Shown: positions 5,252 through 16,725, counted from the stretch's first letter. The stretch is DNA of 64,000 bases from an uncultured Candidatus Saccharibacteria bacterium (GCA_964390265.1 CAYMHI010000001.1:8345-72344), one strand, 5' to 3'. Notes: generated by a model not told the origin, from the letters alone. Made by a program: numbers and translations.

Positions 5252-6574
5252 ATGAACGAAACAAGTGAAGAAAAAGTAGAAAAAGTAGCAGCAACCCCAG
5301 AGCTGAACGCTGCCGAAAAAGAAGTTGTAAAGTTTCTAGATGCCAGAATAGACGCAGAGCCAGAGAAAATGCGCAAATTAATGACCGAGAATTTTCAGGC
5401 TAACTATGATTTTTCAGTTTTAGACCCTCAAAAGCCTCAAAAAACTCAGCCGGTTTCATTTAGAATTATTAGAACTAGTAAAGAGGCCGGTAGTTTTTCG
5501 GTCACTGCTGAGATATTAAATGAAAATCAAAAGAGTCATAAACAAAAAACCATTAGCAAGATATATGATCTTACGAAAGACGCGGACTCCAAACAGCTCT
5601 TAATTAACTCCGAGAAAAACCTCAAATCAGATGTACCGTTTTATAAAAAACCTGTTTTCTGGATAGCCACAGTTATGGGATTGGCTGCTATTGCCGGGCT
5701 AGTATTTTGGGCTATAACCAGTCAAAAAACTACTCAAAATCAACAGTCTATTAAGGCCAACTGGCACCAAGTAGTAGATGGTGCAAAAGGGGTTGATGAT
5801 GCCGCGGCCAACGCTACTAAAGACCAGGCTGGTTATGACAATTACACCAAAAAGCTTAGCGACTACAAAAGCCTGGTTGGCGATGTTAAGTTTAGGGCCG
5901 ATCAACTCAAGCCTACTAGCGCCGACAAAGAAGACATTGCCAATTACAAAAATGCGCTTGTTAACTTAAATGATTATATATCGGAGGCGTCTAATCAAAG
6001 TAAGAATGTTGCTAGCCTTACTACTGCCGATTCATCTAAGCTAGATGATCTAGCTAATACGGCTGAGGCCGCTACCAATAAATTTCAAGATGGCGCTAAA
6101 TATCTAAGCGACAAAATGCCCACAGATATTTTTAACATTGGTGATGTACTGGCAAAGCAAAAAGATAAGCTCGATCAAGATAAACAGAAGGTGCAAGAAG
6201 CCCAAAACGCCGCCGCCGATGTGGTCGCCAAAGATGCTGCCAACAAAACCACAGTTACGAACAATATAACAACTTTTGAGCAAGGCTACATAGCCGGCAA
6301 TGAATCTGTAATGCGCCCAGTTATGACAGCTGGATTCCAAGGAGAATATAACTTCAACCAATTAACTCCCGAGCAACGTCAATATCAATACCCTAGCAGC
6401 TTTAGAATAATTAATGTTACTAAACAAGCCGATGGAACATACAAAGCTCAAGTAAATGTATTGTATAAATACACTGACAACCCCAACCAATATACCCAGG
6501 GTTATGAATACAGCGTAATTGGTCAAAATAATAAGTGGCTAATTAATAACGAAAAAACTGTTAGCGAATTTTAA
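5252..6574 (+). CDS. Hypothetical membrane-anchored protein
   Basis: Long ORF with one central TM helix and coiled-coil and low-complexity regions. No recognisable motif. Confidence 0.5.
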   Translation: MNETSEEKVEKVAATPELNAAEKEVVKFLDARIDAEPEKMRKLMTENFQANYDFSVLDPQKPQKTQPVSFRIIRTSKEAGSFSVTAEILNENQKSHKQKTISKIYDLTKDADSKQLLINSEKNLKSDVPFYKKPVFWIATVMGLAAIAGLVFWAITSQKTTQNQQSIKANWHQVVDGAKGVDDAAANATKDQAGYDNYTKKLSDYKSLVGDVKFRADQLKPTSADKEDIANYKNALVNLNDYISEASNQSKNVASLTTADSSKLDDLANTAEAATNKFQDGAKYLSDKMPTDIFNIGDVLAKQKDKLDQDKQKVQEAQNAAADVVAKDAANKTTVTNNITTFEQGYIAGNESVMRPVMTAGFQGEYNFNQLTPEQRQYQYPSSFRIINVTKQADGTYKAQVNVLYKYTDNPNQYTQGYEYSVIGQNNKWLINNEKTVSEF

Positions 6575-8031: not shown

Positions 8032-8278
8032 ATATCTATAAAGTGCAATCGATTTGAAAGAACATAGCTTATTATACAAGATTTGTATATGCAGCGCTAT
8101 CTTGCAGACAATGTATATTACTCCAAATGTTAATATATTACAAGACAATAAAGTAACTAGCGCAACTCTAAATTAGAATAAAAGTAAATATTATATTCAA
8201 AACCGTTTATACTTGCTTTGGTAGTTGTTTGGGTGTTTAATAGTAGTTAAGAAATATATTTTAAAAAGGAGAATTAAA

Positions 8279-8674
8279 ATGATAAACGGAAAATTAAAAA
8301 AGCTAGCCGTAGTAGGTGGAGCAGCAGTATCAGCCTTGGTACCTACTCTTGCTCGTGCAGCTGACTACAGCTCAGACTACACCACTACAACAACCACTAC
8401 AGATGGCGCTGCCGCTGCAGGTATCGTAGGTGTGTCGCTACTATTTATGTTCTTGTGGTTTGCATTTGCAATATTTGCACTTGTGTACTGGATACTAATG
8501 CTAATTGACGTAATTAAACGTACCAATTGGGAAAACGAAAGCGACAAAACTCTATGGTTGCTAGTTGTAATATTGCTAGGCATACTAGGTGCATTGGTTT
8601 ACCGATTTGTAGTTGTTTCAAAACTAGGCAAAGCTAGCGCACAAAAAACTTCTACTCCAGCTGCTAAAAAATAA
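8279..8674 (+). CDS. Small secreted/membrane protein with a PLD-nuclease N-terminal-like (PLDc_N) membrane domain
   Basis: AAAGGAGA RBS. Signal peptide, a Thr run, then the WILMLIDVIKRTNWE..DKTLWLLVVILLGILGALVY motif. Confidence 0.55.
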   Translation: MINGKLKKLAVVGGAAVSALVPTLARAADYSSDYTTTTTTTDGAAAAGIVGVSLLFMFLWFAFAIFALVYWILMLIDVIKRTNWENESDKTLWLLVVILLGILGALVYRFVVVSKLGKASAQKTSTPAAKK

Positions 8675-9374: not shown

Positions 9375-10421
9375 CTATAAGTCGCCGGTACGACTAAAAA
9401 AGTGTTTCCATCTTGAGTCTGGAATAGGAGTAACGCTTGGGGAGTGCAAGAGGTTATGGCCCTCCAGAAGATACTCGATTATTGCCATGAGTATTGGCAC
9501 GCTATAGCCAGACTGTGCAAAGTGCTTAGCTCGCCTGTCATTGTCTATCTCTGGCATTAGATCATTACTTCGAGGTAATGGGTGCATAAGTATTGCATTG
9601 GGGCTCAACATTCGCATCACACTCTCATCGATGAAATAAGCAGACCCACCAGCTCCCACCCAGTAGAATACATCAGTGTCTAGAACCATCGAGTCGAGAT
9701 TGGTCGTTTCTTTGAATTCAATATCACTCAAATACAAATTCTCTCGCAACTCATCATCTATACGTGCACTTTCAAGTGATACAAATATGAAGCTGATATT
9801 TTCGAAGAGACACAATGCTAGAGCAAGGTTTCGCGCAGTTATATTGCGACGAAGATCGCCACCAATCACCACGCGCAAATTCTGTAGTCTACCCACTTCT
9901 CGATAGATAGTATAGAGATCTACTAGCGTTTGCAATGGGTCATCTGCTATATTGATCATTGCGGCACTACTATGGTGAGCCGAGAGCTCTAACTCTTTAC
10001 TTGGCGGCTGATTGACCGCAATAATGTGAGGCTTGTACTCACTCAGTGACTTTAGTAAATCAGATAAACTTTCATCTCCAGCGCTATCCACATCTATAAT
10101 ACTTATTCCCATTCTTTTGGCAGCGGTAAAGAGAGATGTTTGTGATCGAGGAGACGGGCAGTCTAGCAACGTGTAGAGTAAGTAGTCTCTATAAAGACTG
10201 GCACTGACTTGAGGGTTTGGTACGCGAAGTCCATAACCCAACTGCTGTACGTATATATCTACAGCGGCAAAAAGATCTAACAAGAATTGTTTGCTCAGCT
10301 GAGAGGTGCTTAGTATGTGACGTAGTTTGGTTGATTTCTTTTGCAAAGGAACAAACCTTTCAATATGTTTGGTCGAAAGAAGTTCGTTTGATATAGTAGG
10401 CCAACAGGTAGCAAAAGTCAA
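9375..10421 (-). CDS. Aspartate/ornithine carbamoyltransferase-like protein with a degenerate N-terminal carbamoyl-phosphate motif
   Basis: The C-terminal MHPLPRSNDLMPEIDND...F.QSG motif is a near-perfect match to the ATCase HPLPRVDEI...F.Q..G motif. The N-terminal STRTR motif is replaced by SPRSQT, and HPTQ is not recognisable. Confidence 0.6.
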   Translation of the reverse strand: MTFATCWPTISNELLSTKHIERFVPLQKKSTKLRHILSTSQLSKQFLLDLFAAVDIYVQQLGYGLRVPNPQVSASLYRDYLLYTLLDCPSPRSQTSLFTAAKRMGISIIDVDSAGDESLSDLLKSLSEYKPHIIAVNQPPSKELELSAHHSSAAMINIADDPLQTLVDLYTIYREVGRLQNLRVVIGGDLRRNITARNLALALCLFENISFIFVSLESARIDDELRENLYLSDIEFKETTNLDSMVLDTDVFYWVGAGGSAYFIDESVMRMLSPNAILMHPLPRSNDLMPEIDNDRRAKHFAQSGYSVPILMAIIEYLLEGHNLLHSPSVTPIPDSRWKHFFSRTGDL

Positions 10422-10616: not shown

Positions 10617-10693
10617 CGGGGTGTGGCGCAGTTGGCTAGCGCGCTTGGTTTGGGACCAAGAGGTCGAAGGTTCGAGTCCTTTCACCCCGACCA
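10617..10693 (+). tRNA. tRNA-Pro (TGG)
   Basis: CGGGGTGTGGCGCAGTTGGCTAGCGCGCTTGGTTTGGGACCAAG...CACCCCGACCA. Anticodon UGG. Confidence 0.85.
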
Positions 10694-10735
10694 AACTAAA
10701 ACACCCAACTTTTGTTGGGTGTTTTAGTTTGTATT
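10694..10735 (+). terminator. Perfect 17-bp hairpin 3' of tRNA-Pro
   Basis: aaactaaaacacccaac tttt gttgggtgttttagttt. Confidence 0.6.
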
Positions 10736-10815
10736 TGATGAAAGACGAGAAACCCGAGGTTCGGTGAACGAGGAGCGCAGACCAAAACCAAACCTGTTTA
10801 GGTTTTGAGCGAGCA
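10735..10815 (+). ncRNA. Conserved element of about 80 nt, copy B (paralog of 8918-8998)
   Basis: Alignable with copy A and contains the same CAAAACC...GGTTTTG hairpin. Confidence 0.35.
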
Positions 10816-10895
10816 CCACAGGCAGAAGGCGCCAGCCGTTGTCCTGGCGCTTTAGTAGACTTATGCTACAATTATTAGCATAAGTAATTTTACAA

Positions 10896-13589
10896 ATGGC
10901 AAACAAAAAAGACATTTTAATTAACTCACTACTTACTTTAGGTATACTTGTTGGCTTATTGGCGATTTATGCTGGTTTTAAGATGCACCCAGCTCAGCCA
11001 GCTCATGCCGCAACAACATACACAGTTACCAACGGTAATAATGCTGGTGCTGGTTCGTTGCGCCAAGCGATCACCGATGCCAATGCTAATCCTGGCGCTG
11101 ATATTATTGTTTTTAATGGAGCCCTTGTTATCCAGCCCACTAGCTCATTACCATCAATTACCGACCCGGTAGAAATAAATGGCTACACCGGCTCGCCCGG
11201 CGGTGCCACAGCCAACTCTGCAGCCAGCCCCAACCCATTCAATGGCACACTCACCGTTGAGCTCGATGGTCAGTTGGCGGCTGGTAGCGTACTTGGTTTA
11301 GGTTTTGAATCAGGCTCAGAGGGTTCATCGGTACGTGGGCTGGTGATTTATAATTTTTCTTTTAATGCTATTCAAGTAGCTCCTGGTTTTACTGGTAGCG
11401 GCCTAACCATAGCCGGTAACTACATTGGCACCAATGCAGCCGGTACTGTCGGCCAGGGCACTACGCTTAGCTCTGGCATTGGCCTGTTTGGTACCGGCGC
11501 ATCAAACATTACAGTCGGTGGCACAAACCCAGCAGATAGGAACATAATCTCTGGCAATGCTGGGGGGATTGGAGGCGGGGCAAACAGCAATGCTACCATA
11601 CAGGGCAATTATATTGGCTTAGCTGCCGATGGGACTACTGCCTTAGCAAATGCGGGTGGTGGCATTGTTTTTTATGCCGATACTACCAATGCAACCATTG
11701 GGGGCGCCACTACCTCGGCAGCTAATGTAATATCTGGCAATACATCGGGCTATGGCATATCTATTACGACTGCCGATGTCAACCACAATACTATAGCCGG
11801 TAACTTCATTGGCACTGATTACACAGGCGCTGTTGCCCGTGGTAATGCCAATGGCGGTATATTTATTGGCAGTGGTTCTGCATCTAATACTGTTGGTGGT
11901 ACTACGACCGGCGCTCGAAACCTTATCTCTGGCAATTCTAGTGCGGGTATATTTATTAATAGCGGAGGTACAAGCAACACCGTAGAAGGCAACTACATTG
12001 GTACCGATATAACTGGTGCTACAGCCCTAGCAAATGGCACAGGGGTAAGTATTTTAGGTGGGTCTAGTGGCAACACTATTGGCGGGGCAGATACCACTAC
12101 ACGCAATATTATTTCCGGTAACGGTGGTATGGGTTTGAGTATAGACACAAGTAATAGCAACACAGTAGCAAGTAACTACATTGGTGTTGATGTAACTGGT
12201 ACGGCTGACTTAGGTAATGGCGGTATTGGTGTAGCTATAAATAACTCAGCAAGTAGTAACACTATTGGCGGTACCACTGCTAGTGAACGCAACGTTATTT
12301 CTGGAAACGCAGATAATGGAGTGTACATATCTGGCACTGGCACAAATAATACAATCCTAGGTAATTATCTTGGTACCAATGCGAGTGGCTCAGCCGCAAT
12401 ACCCAATGATCAAAATGGCTTGTTTTATTTGGCAACAGGTACTGGCAATGTTCTGGGTGGACTTGCTGAAGGGTCTAGAAATATTCTTTCGGGTAATTCC
12501 AATTTTGGGGTGATATGTAGTAGTGGTGCCAACTTGAGTATTCAAGGAAATTATGTGGGGTTGAGTGCTGATGGCGCTACAACAATACCCAATGTTGGTG
12601 CTGGTAACAGTGCTAACATTGCTTTGACAGGATGTTCAAACATGATTATCGGTGGTTCTGCTACTGGTGCACGCAATGTTATATCTGGCAGCCTAGGGGC
12701 TGGGATATTAATGATTGCTGGCGGGAATAATACGGTGCAAGGTAACTACATTGGTACCAAAACTAGCGGTGAAGTCCAAAGTGGGTTTGGTAATAGTACC
12801 GCTGGTATTATTATAGCTTCTGCTTCTACGAATAACTTAATAGGCGGTGTAAATAGTGGTGAAGGCAACATAATAGCCGGTAATGGCGCAGGTGTTGCAG
12901 TTGGTGATATAGGAGGTATATTCTTAGCACAAAATAACTCTATCTTAGGCAATAGTATTCATGACAATAGCAGTGGTCCCCTGAGTAGCTTAGGAATAGA
13001 TTTACTGGGTAACACAAATGATTTCGTTACGTGGTCTTCCATTGGCGTTACCCCCAACGATGCTGGTGACCCCGACGTTACCTCTAATGTACTCATGAAC
13101 TTCCCAGTCATTCAATCAGTTACTTCTACCAATGGACAAGCCACAATAACGTATGACTTAGATATCAACGATGCCGAGCCTGGCGCTACTGGCTACCGCG
13201 TAGAGTTCTTTGCCAACGACTCTGCTGACCCCAGTGGTCATGGCCAAGGCCAAACCTACTTGGGAAGCGACACCGTTGCTGGTGATGTGAATGGTAGAAG
13301 CGCCACTCTTACGCTCCCAGCTGGCGTGGATGGTTCTAAATATGTTTCTGCCACCACTACCATGACCGATGCTAGTGATGATGGTTTTGGCCACACCTCT
13401 GAGTTTGCTGCTGACGTACAAGCTACTCTAGTGCCGGTATCTCCAACACCAACCCCAAGTCCAGCTGCCAATGTGTTGGCCACTACGGGCCTTAATCAAA
13501 ATAGAAGTAAATTAATTCTCGCAGCTATCGCACTGGTATTACTGGGTGGTACTGGGCTATACGTTGCTCGCCGTCAAAAACGAACTTAG
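10896..13589 (+). CDS. Large surface protein with right-handed parallel beta-helix repeats and a C-terminal LAxTG sortase sorting signal
   Basis: N-terminal signal/TM. Dozens of Gly/Asn/Thr-rich repeats with N.ISGN motifs. PT-rich linker (VSPTPTPSP). LATTG, a hydrophobic stretch and an RRQKRT tail. Confidence 0.8.
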   Translation: MANKKDILINSLLTLGILVGLLAIYAGFKMHPAQPAHAATTYTVTNGNNAGAGSLRQAITDANANPGADIIVFNGALVIQPTSSLPSITDPVEINGYTGSPGGATANSAASPNPFNGTLTVELDGQLAAGSVLGLGFESGSEGSSVRGLVIYNFSFNAIQVAPGFTGSGLTIAGNYIGTNAAGTVGQGTTLSSGIGLFGTGASNITVGGTNPADRNIISGNAGGIGGGANSNATIQGNYIGLAADGTTALANAGGGIVFYADTTNATIGGATTSAANVISGNTSGYGISITTADVNHNTIAGNFIGTDYTGAVARGNANGGIFIGSGSASNTVGGTTTGARNLISGNSSAGIFINSGGTSNTVEGNYIGTDITGATALANGTGVSILGGSSGNTIGGADTTTRNIISGNGGMGLSIDTSNSNTVASNYIGVDVTGTADLGNGGIGVAINNSASSNTIGGTTASERNVISGNADNGVYISGTGTNNTILGNYLGTNASGSAAIPNDQNGLFYLATGTGNVLGGLAEGSRNILSGNSNFGVICSSGANLSIQGNYVGLSADGATTIPNVGAGNSANIALTGCSNMIIGGSATGARNVISGSLGAGILMIAGGNNTVQGNYIGTKTSGEVQSGFGNSTAGIIIASASTNNLIGGVNSGEGNIIAGNGAGVAVGDIGGIFLAQNNSILGNSIHDNSSGPLSSLGIDLLGNTNDFVTWSSIGVTPNDAGDPDVTSNVLMNFPVIQSVTSTNGQATITYDLDINDAEPGATGYRVEFFANDSADPSGHGQGQTYLGSDTVAGDVNGRSATLTLPAGVDGSKYVSATTTMTDASDDGFGHTSEFAADVQATLVPVSPTPTPSPAANVLATTGLNQNRSKLILAAIALVLLGGTGLYVARRQKRT

Positions 13590-13652
13590 TAATTGAGCTG
13601 CACAACGCATCGATTTTGTAATTTTAATATTGCTTAGTGGTATAATAAATAT

Positions 13653-13871
13653 ATGGACGCAAACACATTTATCAATCAAAATATCTGGTGGATACTACTC
13701 TTGGCCATATGGAGTATTGGCTGGAAAGGTTGGGCTCTGTGGCGAGCTGCCAAACTCGATCAAAAAGTCTGGTTTGTAGTATTTATGATAGTTAATACCG
13801 CAGGCATATTAGAAATATTTTATATCTATTATTTCTCCAAACAAGGCACCAAAAAATCAGATTCAAAATAA
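13653..13871 (+). CDS. Small two-TM membrane protein
   Basis: 72-aa ORF with two Trp-rich hydrophobic helices, located between the sortase substrate and the sortase. Confidence 0.4.
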   Translation: MDANTFINQNIWWILLLAIWSIGWKGWALWRAAKLDQKVWFVVFMIVNTAGILEIFYIYYFSKQGTKKSDSK

Positions 13872-13921
13872 TTATTTGCTAAACGACCTATGCAAATTTG
13901 TGGTATAGGTTGCTCATACAT

Positions 13922-14527
13922 ATGAAAAAAAACAAACATTTAATTACTACCCCAGACGACACTAGTGACCGCCAGCACCCTGGGTTAAAAACTTTTTTAA
14001 GACTCGCCATTACAATTGTATCTGTCGGCTTTATTGCTGCCGGGATTTATTTGTTAGTTTTGCTATTTGGGCCCAAGTACTCATTTTATTTAAACAAAAA
14101 AATGCCCGAGATTACCGATCAAAACAGAGTGGTAGTGCTTGACCATGGCATAAATACCACCATCTACGAGGGTGGAGCTGAGGTGCTAGAAAACGGTGCT
14201 TGGCACCAATATCCTGAGCGGGGAAATCCTCAAATGGGAGGTAATTTTATATTGGCAGCACATAGCTTTTTGTGGGGCTACACGCCTAGTCAAATAATGA
14301 ATAAATCATTTTTTTACAACCTTGAGGACGTAAAAGTGGGCGATCAAATAACGGTGTATTGGAACAAACAAGCTTATAGCTATACGGCTACAGAAAAACT
14401 TCAGGTTAAACCCAACGATCCAGCAATATTGGAGCCTAGTGGCGAAGCAAAGCTTACTATGTACACTTGCACCGAGGCCGGTAGCGCCGATGGCCGCGTA
14501 GTGGTTATTGCTAAGCCAAATAATTGA
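13922..14527 (+). CDS. Sortase (LAxTG-specific, class-E-like transpeptidase)
   Basis: N-terminal TM. Conserved His in FILAAHSF. The TMYTCTEAG motif is the sortase TLxTC catalytic Cys. Conserved Arg in DGRVVV downstream. Confidence 0.75.
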   Translation: MKKNKHLITTPDDTSDRQHPGLKTFLRLAITIVSVGFIAAGIYLLVLLFGPKYSFYLNKKMPEITDQNRVVVLDHGINTTIYEGGAEVLENGAWHQYPERGNPQMGGNFILAAHSFLWGYTPSQIMNKSFFYNLEDVKVGDQITVYWNKQAYSYTATEKLQVKPNDPAILEPSGEAKLTMYTCTEAGSADGRVVVIAKPNN

Positions 14528-14662: not shown

Positions 14663-15973
14663 ATGAATAAAGTTACTCCACGGCGACCATCTGGATTTGT
14701 CGAGTATTTACCCACACAACAAGCCCAGCTACAAAGTGTGCTCGACACTATTCGTAGCGTATATGAAAAATATGGCTTTATGCCTATAGAAACACCGGCT
14801 GTGGAGTTGGCCGAGGTACTGCTAGCAAAGGGCGGTGGTGAAACCGAGCAAGAGGTTTATCGTTTTAGTAAAGGTGATAAAGAATATGCCTTGCACTACG
14901 ACCTAACTGTTCCACTAGCTCGATATGTGGCTGAGCACGAAAATGAACTGACCTTTCCATTTAGACGCTATCAAATGCAAAAAGTTTGGCGAGCCGAGCG
15001 CGCCCAAAAGGGTCGCTACAGAGAATTTTATCAATGCGATGCTGATATTATTGGTAGCTCTAGTACAGGACATGATGCCGAACTAGTTGCTCTTAGCGCC
15101 GATGTATTTAAGGCTCTAGGCCTTGGAGATTTTACAATTCGCATTAGCAATCGCAAATTGTTGAGCGGACTCATTGAGGCAATTGGGTTACAAGCTAAAA
15201 CAAGTGATATATTGCACGCCATAGACAAACTCGACAAAATTGGTGTCGAAGAAGTCACCAAGATGCTCAAAGACGCGGGTTGTGGCGATGACGATTCTAC
15301 TCAACTGATCGATTTTGTAAATATGGGCGGAGAAGGTGCAGATGTAATAAGCCAACTCGAAGGACTTTCGGTCGAAAACGAAACTTTTACTAGTGGCCTA
15401 AATGAAATTAAAGAGCTGGTGGCCCAAGTGCAAGCATTGGGTATTGATAGTCAAAATTATACAATTGATTTACGAATTGTCCGCGGGCTAGATTATTATA
15501 CTGGTACGGTTTATGAGACAACACTCAACAACCACCCCGAGTTTGGCTCGGTATTATCAGGTGGCCGTTACGACAACTTGGCAGAATATTATACCAAAAC
15601 TCATTTGCCAGGTGTGGGCGTATCGATTGGCTTAAGTAGACTGTTTGCCGCCGCACTTGAATATTATTTAATTGCCAAACAACCACAAATGGTGCAGGTA
15701 TATATTGTTAATTTTGGGGTTGGTGCGCGCGAGTGGGCCCTAAAAGTTGCTAGCGACTTTAGATCTGCCGGTGTAGCCACCCAGGTAGATTTAGAAGACA
15801 GCAAGGTAGATAAACAATTTAGGTATGCTGACAGACTGGGCGTACCATATACTATTGTAATCGGTGAAAACGAAGTGGCTGCCAAAAACGTTATTCTAAA
15901 AAACATGCTAAGGGGTGACCAAGAAACTTTGGCTATTGATGCCGCAATACTTCATTGTAAGAAATCGGTATAA
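14663..15973 (+). CDS. hisS: Histidyl-tRNA synthetase
   Basis: Class II aaRS motifs (FRRYQMQKVWRAERAQKGRYREFYQCD and GGRYDNL) and a C-terminal anticodon-binding domain. Confidence 0.9.
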   Translation: MNKVTPRRPSGFVEYLPTQQAQLQSVLDTIRSVYEKYGFMPIETPAVELAEVLLAKGGGETEQEVYRFSKGDKEYALHYDLTVPLARYVAEHENELTFPFRRYQMQKVWRAERAQKGRYREFYQCDADIIGSSSTGHDAELVALSADVFKALGLGDFTIRISNRKLLSGLIEAIGLQAKTSDILHAIDKLDKIGVEEVTKMLKDAGCGDDDSTQLIDFVNMGGEGADVISQLEGLSVENETFTSGLNEIKELVAQVQALGIDSQNYTIDLRIVRGLDYYTGTVYETTLNNHPEFGSVLSGGRYDNLAEYYTKTHLPGVGVSIGLSRLFAAALEYYLIAKQPQMVQVYIVNFGVGAREWALKVASDFRSAGVATQVDLEDSKVDKQFRYADRLGVPYTIVIGENEVAAKNVILKNMLRGDQETLAIDAAILHCKKSV

Positions 15974-16059: not shown

Positions 16060-16725
16060 ATGTCACCGGTAACTTCAAAACGTCAATATGTTGGCGCCAT
16101 GGATCATAGTAGTAGGCTGGCTCTAGTTGAAGAAATCAAACCGCTATATATGTGGTTTAGCCCAGATTCAACAGATTTGGATATTTTAATTAGACTTACA
16201 TACATGCCAAATGCAACCTGCACAACGCTAACCGAAGATGGCAGGTGCGTGGGCTTTATGATCTCGCATATTGAAAAGCATAAAAAATCCTTAGTGCTTT
16301 ACGTTAAGGGCGTGATTGTAGACGAACTATATAGATCGAGACACTATTTTCGTAAAATGCTTGAAGATGCGATAGAACTCTATCAACCAAACTACATCGC
16401 ACTTACCACGCAAAATCCCAGAGTTTATACGATGCTGGCAAAGATCTGTGGCGTAGAGAACGTGTACCCTCGCCACACTTATCCGCCTGGTTATGAGATT
16501 CTAGACCTTGCTCGTCAATTAATCTCTGGTGGCGCAACGAGCGGTGAGGTGGGTGACACAGAAATTCGTAACCTTGTGCTGAAGGGACACTATACCTCAT
16601 CTAGGCCCGAAGACAAGACATATATGTCTAGTGATATGACAAATGTAGATGGCTTTTTTGACAGCCAGCTTGGCCCTACCGATGGATTTTTGGTAATTGC
16701 CCGCTTCATTACGCCAGGTAGATAA
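16060..16725 (+). CDS. Hypothetical protein, possibly a GNAT-fold acyltransferase
   Basis: IVDELYRSRHYFRKMLEDAIE resembles GNAT motif A. This is a weak call. Confidence 0.35.
   Translation: MSPVTSKRQYVGAMDHSSRLALVEEIKPLYMWFSPDSTDLDILIRLTYMPNATCTTLTEDGRCVGFMISHIEKHKKSLVLYVKGVIVDELYRSRHYFRKMLEDAIELYQPNYIALTTQNPRVYTMLAKICGVENVYPRHTYPPGYEILDLARQLISGGATSGEVGDTEIRNLVLKGHYTSSRPEDKTYMSSDMTNVDGFFDSQLGPTDGFLVIARFITPGR

Follow-up and report, generated by a model that had tools for sequence, protein, structure and literature searches.

Class E sortases, represented by SrtE1 and SrtE2 of S. coelicolor, SrtA of A. oris and SrtF of C. diphtheriae, come from Actinobacteria and have predicted substrates of the LAxTG type. 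They carry a single N-terminal membrane anchor, a His-Cys-Arg triad and a tyrosine in the β3/β4 loop. Their role is of the housekeeping type, with the gene lying among housekeeping genes. Class A enzymes, such as SrtA of L. monocytogenes and S. pyogenes, have the same architecture and a general role in anchoring diverse surface proteins, and they use LPxTG. CpSrtD of Clostridium perfringens (PDB 4d70) is a class D enzyme that is reported to prefer LPQTGS. Phe92 of CpSrtD is the analogue of SrtE1 Tyr229, and the β3/β4-loop tyrosine has been proposed to select alanine at P3 (PMC5148588). That sortases are common in CPR has been known before: more than half of the CPR genomes encode a sortase family (PMC6744442). 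This inventory statement was all that our search for Saccharibacteria or CPR sortases, LAXTG and LPXTG found in the literature outside subscription-only papers. Among possible sortase clients, CSLREA-type parallel beta-helix surface proteins are widespread in Planctomycetes, Chloroflexi and elsewhere. Cultured Saccharibacteria live attached to Actinobacteria. Genetic screens have revealed that extracellular glycan-binding proteins are essential for this lifestyle in cultured Saccharibacteria (PMC10633639).

Here we describe a locus within a 64-kb stretch of DNA (the window) whose sortase shares with class E the predicted LAxTG substrate, the single N-terminal anchor, the triad, and the housekeeping-type role and genomic setting; by sequence alignment, it also has a tyrosine at the putatively equivalent loop position. 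It differs in belonging to a clade from Saccharibacteria in which the tyrosine is not conserved. We consider it very probable that a Saccharibacterium here has a sortase locus of the housekeeping type, in which an LAxTG clade enzyme is predicted to anchor a beta-helix rod covalently to the cell wall. The sequence-only reading of the locus stood as regards the three genes, the sorting signal and the catalytic residues. Its assignment of the sortase to class E and its proposal of an accessory factor did not.

Gene layout and sorting signal

ORF calling recovered the three co-directional genes on the + strand at the positions first read from the sequence. The first (10896..13589) encodes a secreted surface protein of 897 aa with a beta-helix, which is predicted to be the substrate of the sortase. 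The second (13653..13871) encodes a 72-aa Trp-rich small membrane protein, and the third (13898..14527) the sortase, with an N-terminal membrane helix and a catalytic barrel. The sortase has 209 aa if read from TTG; gene callers and homologs make ATG 13922 the more likely start, which gives 201 aa. The upstream edge of the locus (10617..10731, + strand) consists of a tRNA-Pro (10617-10693; ARAGORN and Rfam) and, following it, a hairpin with an 18-bp stem (10692-10731) from the terminator-like scan. Between the three genes, that scan gave no + strand site resembling a terminator; within the span, its sole + strand match (11325-11346) was a weak stem of 8 pairs near the start of the beta-helix gene. 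Since both promoter and terminator scans of the locus gave background levels, the operon structure is read from spacing and strand only. The attribution of the DNA to Saccharibacteria agrees with the origin of the sortase relatives, as nearly all of the 79 genome loci that carry them are Saccharibacteria MAGs.

The C terminus of the 897-aa protein reads ...VPVSPTPTPSPAANV-LATTG(861-865)-LNQNRSK-LILAAIALVLLGGTGLYVA(873-891)-RRQKRT. The cell-wall sorting signal (13431..13586, + strand) was delimited from the sequence, the conservation among 24 homologs and the AlphaFold2 (AF2) model. It begins with a Pro/Thr-rich stalk (residues 846-860) that is disordered in the model. LATTG (nt 13476-13490) comes next and is followed by the polar spacer, a transmembrane (TM) segment (nt 13512-13568; AF2 helix 867-896) and the basic RRQKRT tail (nt 13569-13586). 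No other real ORF in the 64-kb window combines pentapeptide, TM segment and basic tail in a credible way. Two other regular-expression matches were rejected: a central-metabolism-like tail and, nested antisense to it, an ORF of 109 aa. In the 24 aligned homologs, A862, T864 and G865 were invariant, and every tail (24/24) consisted of [LIV]AxTG, a TM segment and basic residues. Among the top 120 homologs, 28 carried a sorting signal, with alanine at position 2 in all 28. The claim of a complete LAxTG-type signal was thus borne out, with both the motif and the hydrophobic tail retained in orthologs.

The beta-helix passenger

A protein identical to the 897-aa protein is present in NCBI/Logan (P0062). 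Its first 38 residues (10896..11009, + strand) form a predicted Sec signal peptide, as read from a KK n-region, a hydrophobic core and an AHA|A cleavage site. Residues 2-30 are helical in the AF2 model, A38 hardly varies among the 24 homologs, and the N termini are similar in all full-length ones. Residues ~40-705 (11013..13010, + strand) form a right-handed parallel beta-helix, as indicated by repeat positions, DSSP pattern, Foldseek matches and homolog names. The model (pLDDT 85.2, pTM 0.82) displays regular short strands across this region, which contains eight super-repeats of ~63 aa (GNYIGT...N.IGG...RN.ISGN). All 18 PDB matches found by Foldseek at E<=1e-3 were right-handed parallel beta-helix proteins. 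The thresholds of the family models were missed: in Pfam, NosD scored 23.4 (cutoff 23.6) and Beta_helix 14.8 (cutoff 25.9), and NCBIfam returned no family at E<=1, CSLREA (TIGR04214) included. Many homologs carry NosD and Beta_helix domains in precomputed annotation. The model, its PDB matches and the super-repeats confirmed the beta-helix call. "Giant" overstates a protein of 897 aa. Behind the beta-helix lies an all-beta Ig/FN3-like domain (residues 738-845; 13107..13430, + strand), which was delimited from AF2 strands. FN3/Ig-type Foldseek matches appeared at ranks 47-50, and the YRVEFFAN...TSEF module of this domain is conserved in homologs.

The closest described relatives, among more than 7,900 homologs at E<=1e-3, bear the names parallel beta-helix or CSLREA-domain protein. 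They share with the window protein the (C/G)SLRxAI N-terminal cap, the GNYIGT / RN.ISGN super-repeats, an NDxxDxD...NFPV linker and the C-terminal Ig-like TATATD..TSEF domain. The window protein reads GSLRQAI at the CSLREA-like cap, where the consensus of the 24-sequence alignment is CSLRxAI, so that glycine replaces the eponymous cysteine; its kinship with CSLREA-domain proteins is one of overall homology. The Saccharibacteria-type relatives are shorter (~900-1100 aa) and end in LAxTG, a TM segment and a basic tail, whereas most other CSLREA-type homologs have no LAxTG anchor or have other anchors, one of them a T9SS C-terminal domain.

The passenger shares its fold with carbohydrate-binding or carbohydrate-modifying proteins. 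Its most plausible role is to bind, or possibly to cleave, a glycan at the surface of the host or partner cell. Alternatively, it would not serve passively as an adhesin or spacer but would degrade or modify polysaccharides of the host envelope while anchored to the wall, as a lyase, epimerase or depolymerase. Each significant fold match in the PDB is a carbohydrate-active beta-helix, including the AlgE4 and AlgG epimerases, phage tailspike depolymerases, chondroitinase B and capsule lyases, and glycan-targeting extracellular proteins are essential in Southlakia (PMC10633639). However, these matches have low TM-scores (0.1-0.23 on the query) and identities of 8-15%, and no catalytic family HMM matched. 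Moreover, the eight super-repeats are near identical and lack the irregular loops of which a catalytic groove is usually built, and we recognized no such groove in the passenger's very regular repeats. We regard an enzymatic passenger as somewhat unlikely, and glycan binding as the preferred reading.

Class and substrates of the sortase

The third gene product belongs to the sortase superfamily (Pfam PF04203 / MEROPS C60). It scored 69.3 bits against PF04203 (cutoff 26.6) and has the eight-stranded beta-barrel fold. The catalytic residues reported from the sequence were recovered as His122 (nt 14261-14263), Cys191 in the TMYTC motif (nt 14468-14470) and Arg200 (nt 14495-14497), all on the + strand and all invariant in 34 homologs and 75 locus-encoded sequences. 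The protein ends right after strand 8 and has neither a C-terminal TM segment nor a lid region. Both features are typical of class C sortases. A class C (pilus) system was rejected: the enzyme scored 35.0 bits against the class C HMM (cutoff 160), has no lid or C-terminal TM segment and is paired with a substrate without a YPKN-like motif.

The sequence-only reading had placed the enzyme in class E. If so, it would be a genuine, divergent class E sortase with ancestry and substrate recognition in common with the SrtE enzymes of Actinobacteria, SrtA of A. oris and SrtF of C. diphtheriae. The curated class E HMM (NCBIfam NF033747) was marginally the best class model, both for the window sortase (38.2 bits) and for the 34 family members (best E 2.6e-15, compared to 9.9e-15 for class D). 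The match ran from profile positions 79-204 to residues 81-206 with zero net indel. The neighboring substrates are LAxTG proteins, and Tyr105 (nt 14210-14212, + strand) in the β3/β4 loop aligned with Phe92 of CpSrtD in a HMMER sequence alignment with a one-residue gap. However, the class E score is four-fold under the cutoff of 160, and all 34 family members fell far below it. It is also indistinguishable from the class C score and from those of the curated class D models NF033746 (35.6 bits, cutoff 165) and NF058671 (31.8 bits, cutoff 140); the class A NCBIfam models gave no match at E<=1. When the family profile was compared with solved structures, CpSrtD ranked first (62.6 bits), followed by class A (43.7 bits) and class C (42.8 bits), with the class E structures 5utt (33.4 bits, rank 19) and 5cuw (31.2 bits, rank 28) behind. 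No class E structure was among the Foldseek top 50 for the sortase. The hallmark tyrosine is not conserved either, as residue 105 varies among members (31 F, 26 Y, 6 K, 5 H and 3 W), and members with Phe or Val also pair with LAxTG. Membership in class E is accordingly quite unlikely. The sortase is instead part of a discrete clade of Saccharibacteria enzymes, which does not fit into any of the curated classes A to F. With class A enzymes, it shares ~21-23% identity. CpSrtD resembles it in size and topology and has an aromatic residue at the position equivalent to Tyr105. CpSrtD, the closest solved relative in the profile search, reportedly fails to process LAETG (PMC5148588), in contrast to the LAxTG neighbors of the clade and counter to the main reading.

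We surveyed 79 genome loci with this sortase family (677 ORFs) using the same tail detector and a shuffled-tail control. The survey detected 38 cell-wall sorting signal proteins in 29 of the 79 loci, compared to 0.0 with shuffled tails. At motif position 2, these proteins had Ala (29), Pro (4), Val (3) or Ser (2). Of the 35 such proteins in a first-pass scan, 22 lay within 400 bp of the sortase and 28 shared its strand. The CSLREA-type beta-helix family of the 897-aa protein was the commonest neighbor family (20 loci, 32 proteins), and the LAxTG-linked sortases were dispersed throughout the family tree. The signal counts, the predominance of Ala and the [LIV]AxTG tails of the 24 homologs make LAxTG specificity of the family well supported by genomic association. 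Because the linked substrates are overwhelmingly LAxTG proteins, the clade enzyme would work like class E without being one. An adjacent substrate was seen in only 29 of the 79 loci. The closest relatives, L001 and L003, have the sortase next to a relative of the 72-aa protein and no beta-helix gene, which indicates that the substrate-sortase pairing is not obligatory. Several genomes carry two or three paralogous sortases (L003/L005 on one contig; L021/L054/L068 in one MAG).

Residue 105 covaried with substrate P3 in the raw table: aromatic residues or His were paired with 29 Ala to 1 Pro, and Lys with 0 Ala to 3 Pro (Fisher p=7e-4). In the family tree, the three Lys105 cases form one clade and the two Trp105 cases another, and Val105 enzymes also pair with LAPTG, so the covariation is a lead, not a result. 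As a tentative extension, less probable than not, the Saccharibacteria enzymes may be an unnamed sortase class equidistant from A, C, D and E that came to LAxTG specificity, or kept it, independently of the class E enzymes of Actinobacteria. The P3 preference would then be tuned by residue 105 (Tyr, Phe, His or Val for Ala; Lys for Pro; Trp for Ser or Val), and the main clients would be beta-helix glycan-binding rods mediating epibiont-host contact.

The small membrane protein and the anchoring model

The 72-aa protein is a member of Pfam DUF5652 (76.6 bits, cutoff 23.4; profile positions 8-69 of 71). It is a near full-model match that nothing sets apart from the family, which has no consistent link to sortases. 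The protein had been proposed as an accessory factor. It could be a dedicated accessory or regulatory membrane partner in a three-component system, as short gaps, with no terminator-like site in them, separate its gene from the substrate gene on one side and the sortase gene on the other. The adjacency to a sortase persists in L001, L003 (where the same tRNA-Pro lies immediately 5' of the DUF5652 gene), L010 and the metagenome loci L082-L085, down to ~43% identity to the window sortase in L010 among the genome loci. Against this, DUF5652 was found in only 3 of 76 genome sortase loci using a sensitive HMM. Of the 80 DUF5652 metagenome loci that were kept, 53 had at least 800 bp downstream, and only 4 of the 80 had a sortase beside it. 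In L002, substrate and sortase are directly adjacent with no DUF5652 between them, and the closest DUF5652 relative (L081, 79% identity) has no sortase nearby. The position of DUF5652 at the locus is conserved only in close relatives. On this co-occurrence we rejected the accessory role, which we consider very unlikely; the DUF5652 protein is probably unrelated to the sortase system.

According to our model, the Sec pathway would export the 897-aa protein, and the C-terminal TM segment and RRQKRT tail would hold it in the membrane. The membrane-anchored sortase would then cut LATT|G via Cys191, with His122 and Arg200 assisting, and a peptidoglycan-precursor amine would resolve the acyl-enzyme intermediate. 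The predicted product is a rigid beta-helix rod of ~660 residues with an Ig-like domain, covalently displayed on the short Pro/Thr stalk. That the C-terminal segment is a mere membrane anchor, or that the sortase polymerizes its substrates into a pilus-like fiber, would suit the paralogous sortases of several genomes, but is extremely unlikely given the strict A, T and G conservation of the pentapeptide, unexpected for a TM anchor, the missing class C-type C terminus of the sortase and the absence of a pilin YPKN-type motif from the substrate.

Covalent wall anchoring remains our preferred reading. Overall, the locus contains an ordinary pair of sortase and substrate, with the enzyme coming from an unclassified clade, and a sortase beside its substrate is routine biology. 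Judged from sequence, this locus and its ~30 counterparts argue that a clade-specific sortase may covalently anchor a recurrent family of beta-helix rods via LAxTG. The clade offers an independent lineage in which the structural explanation proposed for how sortases tell Ala from Pro can be tested. The survey also yields a defined list of candidate attachment proteins, all of which should be stripped together from the epibiont surface by deleting or inhibiting the sortase.

Organization of the locus

Three co-directional open reading frames (ORFs) span positions 10896 to 14527 of the + strand, at the coordinates given by the sequence-only reading. They encode an 897-aa protein (10896 to 13589), a 72-aa membrane protein (13653 to 13871) and a sortase (13898 to 14527). 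The intergenic gaps measure 63 bp and 26 to 50 bp, and a terminator-like scan revealed no + strand sites between the three genes. The locus is flanked by tRNA-Pro and a strong hairpin (10617 to 10731) on one side and by hisS (14663 to 15973) on the other; the wider surroundings are housekeeping (RNase Y, MgtE, a tRNA cluster and aminoacyl-tRNA synthetases).

Recognizable Shine-Dalgarno sequences are absent from all three genes. A GTGGTATA(A/G) element occurs at 13637 to 13646, 7 nt 5' of the ATG of the 72-aa protein, and again at 13900 to 13909, 13 nt 5' of the sortase ATG; these elements may be internal promoters producing leaderless or short-leader mRNAs. A perfect 10-bp inverted repeat at 10859 to 10885 (ACTTATGCTA and TAGCATAAGT, 7-nt spacer) lies 11 bp 5' of the start codon of the 897-aa protein and overlaps an extended -10-like element, TGCTACAAT. 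An operator and an RNA hairpin are both possible readings of this repeat.

Other neighbors were also recorded. At 9375 to 10421 (- strand) lies a gene whose product is a diverged relative of aspartate/ornithine carbamoyltransferases (OTCace_N, 50 bits; OTCace, 40 bits), in a genome from which most biosynthesis would be expected to be missing; the position of the gene is kept in the related locus L003. Two + strand ORFs, at 5252 to 6574 (440 aa) and 16060 to 16725 (221 aa), had no Pfam match at an E value of ≤1e-5. Homologs of the 440-aa protein occur in L003 and in two metagenome loci (L081 and L084), with a conserved C terminus (...YKAQVNVL.KYTDN.NQYTQGY.YS).

A beta-helix protein with a sorting signal

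NCBI has an identical copy of the 897-aa protein on a contig of 102 kb. The protein begins with a signal-peptide-like N terminus (KK, a hydrophobic core and AHA|A), followed by a CSLREA-like cap (GSLRQAI; CSLRxAI is the consensus among homologs), eight super-repeats of about 63 aa, a linker of low confidence in the AlphaFold2 (AF2) model, an all-beta domain (residues 738 to 845) likened by structure matches to FN3/Ig folds, and a C-terminal end consisting of a Pro/Thr stalk, LATTG (861 to 865), a transmembrane (TM) helix and RRQKRT. With the Pfam beta-helix models, the protein scored just below threshold. Nevertheless, the AF2 model (pLDDT 85, pTM 0.82) bore out the proposed parallel beta-helix, as all significant structural matches were right-handed parallel beta-helices (AlgE4 and AlgG epimerases, phage tailspikes and polysaccharide lyases).

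The family is very large, with >7,900 matches labeled as parallel beta-helix or CSLREA-domain proteins. A sortase-type signal ends 28 of the 120 best homologs, mostly the shorter ones of about 900 to 1,100 aa, and motif position 2 is Ala in all 28. The signal is retained in orthologs: A862, T864 and G865 are invariant in 24 aligned homologs, so the loss of conservation that would have counted against the sequence-only reading is not seen. In five long homologs from outside Saccharibacteria (P0069, P0074, P0109, P0112 and P0120), a short [YF][LM]P[ILV][IV][LV][KR] tail replaces LAxTG (e.g., ...RIFLPIVVKG and ...VYLPIILKNH). The tail may represent another type of sorting tag, possibly one not yet described.

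A Saccharibacteria-specific sortase clade

The 209-aa sortase ORF scored above the Pfam Sortase threshold (69.3 bits); homologs and gene calls agree on a likely start at ATG 13922, giving 201 aa. His122, Cys191 (in TMYTC) and Arg200 are invariant across 34 homologs. The AF2 model (pLDDT 89.4) comprises a long N-terminal membrane helix and a sortase barrel, the chain stopping directly after the last strand.

The enzyme had been read as class E, an assignment that did not hold. It passed none of the curated class models tested (class E, 38.2 bits against a cutoff of 160; class D, 35.6 against 165; class C, 35.0 against 160), and over all 34 family members the E, D and C scores were about equal, every one far under cutoff. 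When the family profile was searched against all PDB sequences, Clostridium perfringens SrtD (class D) came first (62.6 bits), followed by class A (43.7) and class C (42.8), with the class E entries 5utt (33.4) and 5cuw (31.2) behind; none of the Foldseek top 50 was class E. We conclude that the sortase belongs to a Saccharibacteria-specific clade and cannot be filed under class E. The window comes from a Saccharibacterium, and relatives of its sortase, at 79 species-level genome loci, are nearly all from Saccharibacteria metagenome-assembled genomes. A complete HMMER search against 1.84 billion representatives returned 174 proteins at E≤1e-30 versus 11,595 at E≤1e-3; the clade is a discrete one of modest size. 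Two or three paralogs occur together in several genomes (L003/L005, L001/L008 and L021/L054/L068), and some of these paralogs are also flanked by beta-helix substrates. One 2,016-aa representative (P0281) has its sortase domain at the extreme C terminus (residues 1835 to 2015), reflecting either the fusion of a substrate to a sortase or a merged gene call. In another branch (L056, L057, L059 and about 12 to 15 more loci) the sortase lies just downstream of hrcA-grpE-dnaK-dnaJ; at least two housekeeping neighborhoods of the sortase are thus conserved, one hisS-linked, as in the window, and one linked to the chaperone operon.

We scanned ±6 kb around the 79 sortase loci for a pentapeptide, TM segment and basic tail, using 20 rounds of shuffled tails as the control. 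The scan identified 38 proteins across 29 loci (shuffled tails, 0.0), with Ala (29), Pro (4), Ser (2) or Val (3) at motif position 2. In a first-pass scan, LADTG, LANTG and LAPTG were most frequent; 22 of 35 signal-bearing proteins lay no more than 400 bp from the sortase, and 28 shared its strand. After clustering of all neighbors, the top family was the same beta-helix family as in the window (20 loci, 32 proteins), and LAxTG-linked sortases were dispersed across the entire family tree. By genomic association alone, the predicted LAxTG preference of the clade is well supported.

Kattke et al. proposed that class E enzymes select Ala at P3, motif position 2, through a Tyr conserved in their beta3/beta4 loop, SrtE1 Tyr229, the counterpart of CpSrtD Phe92 (PMC5148588). 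HMMER aligned Tyr105 of the window sortase to CpSrtD Phe92. Across the clade this position is F (31), Y (26), K (6), H (5) or W (3). Partners of Tyr, Phe and His enzymes had Ala in 29 cases versus Pro in 1, three Lys enzymes accompanied LPxTG and two Trp enzymes LS or LV motifs. The Lys105 cases form one clade, as do the Trp105 cases, and LAPTG partners occur with Val105 enzymes too. We regard the apparent covariation as a testable lead, not as evidence.

Variable neighbors and proposed function

The 72-aa protein, a clear DUF5652 (Pfam) member, had been suggested as an accessory factor, which its distribution speaks against. Even by a dedicated HMM, it adjoins only 3 of 76 sortase loci (L001, L003 and L010). 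Conversely, of the 80 DUF5652 metagenome loci kept from 323 confirmed matches, only 4 had a sortase, and 53 of the 80 extended far enough downstream to show one. In L002, substrate and sortase adjoin directly without DUF5652. The adjacency is lineage-specific synteny, with a functional link being unlikely. A gene inside the tRNA cluster (8225 to 8674, + strand) encodes a 149-aa membrane protein with a PLDc_N domain (33.5 bits). Homologs of this protein lie near DUF5652 in L003, L082 and L084 and, as two tandem copies, in L081; the protein, the tRNAs and DUF5652 thus make up a block that is conserved independently of the sortase.

In L001 and L003, where the sortase is 66 to 67% identical to that of the window, the order is tRNA-Pro, DUF5652, sortase, small lipoprotein and hisS, without the beta-helix gene; in L002 it is beta-helix gene (product ending in LALTG), sortase and hisS. 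The hisS-linked sortase is thus conserved, and the substrate gene next to the sortase is variable. In the two closest genomes (L001 and L003) the substrate gene is missing at the site orthologous to 10617 to 13652, and it looks like a variable insertion beside tRNA-Pro. The GC content of its region is slightly higher (0.45 versus about 0.41), which may only reflect Gly/Ala/Thr-rich composition.

Canonical sorting of the 897-aa protein is the most likely process. The protein would be exported via Sec and retained by its TM segment and basic tail; Cys191 would then cleave LATT|G and transfer the product onto an amine of a peptidoglycan precursor, so that a rigid rod of about 660 residues is displayed. 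Our best guess is that this passenger binds host glycan, because its fold neighbors are carbohydrate active and extracellular glycan-binding proteins are essential in Southlakia (PMC10633639). That it acts as an enzyme is a serious alternative.

The sortase-substrate locus itself belongs to a known kind of system. More than half of CPR genomes have been reported to encode a sortase family (PMC6744442), and the proteins of the locus are already deposited under generic names. Among the papers open to our literature search, none tied Saccharibacteria to a distinct sortase class, to LAxTG signals or to beta-helix clients. The more interesting part is the clade-level pattern, an unclassified sortase with a class E-like motif and recurrent beta-helix clients, which would need phylogeny and biochemistry to establish.
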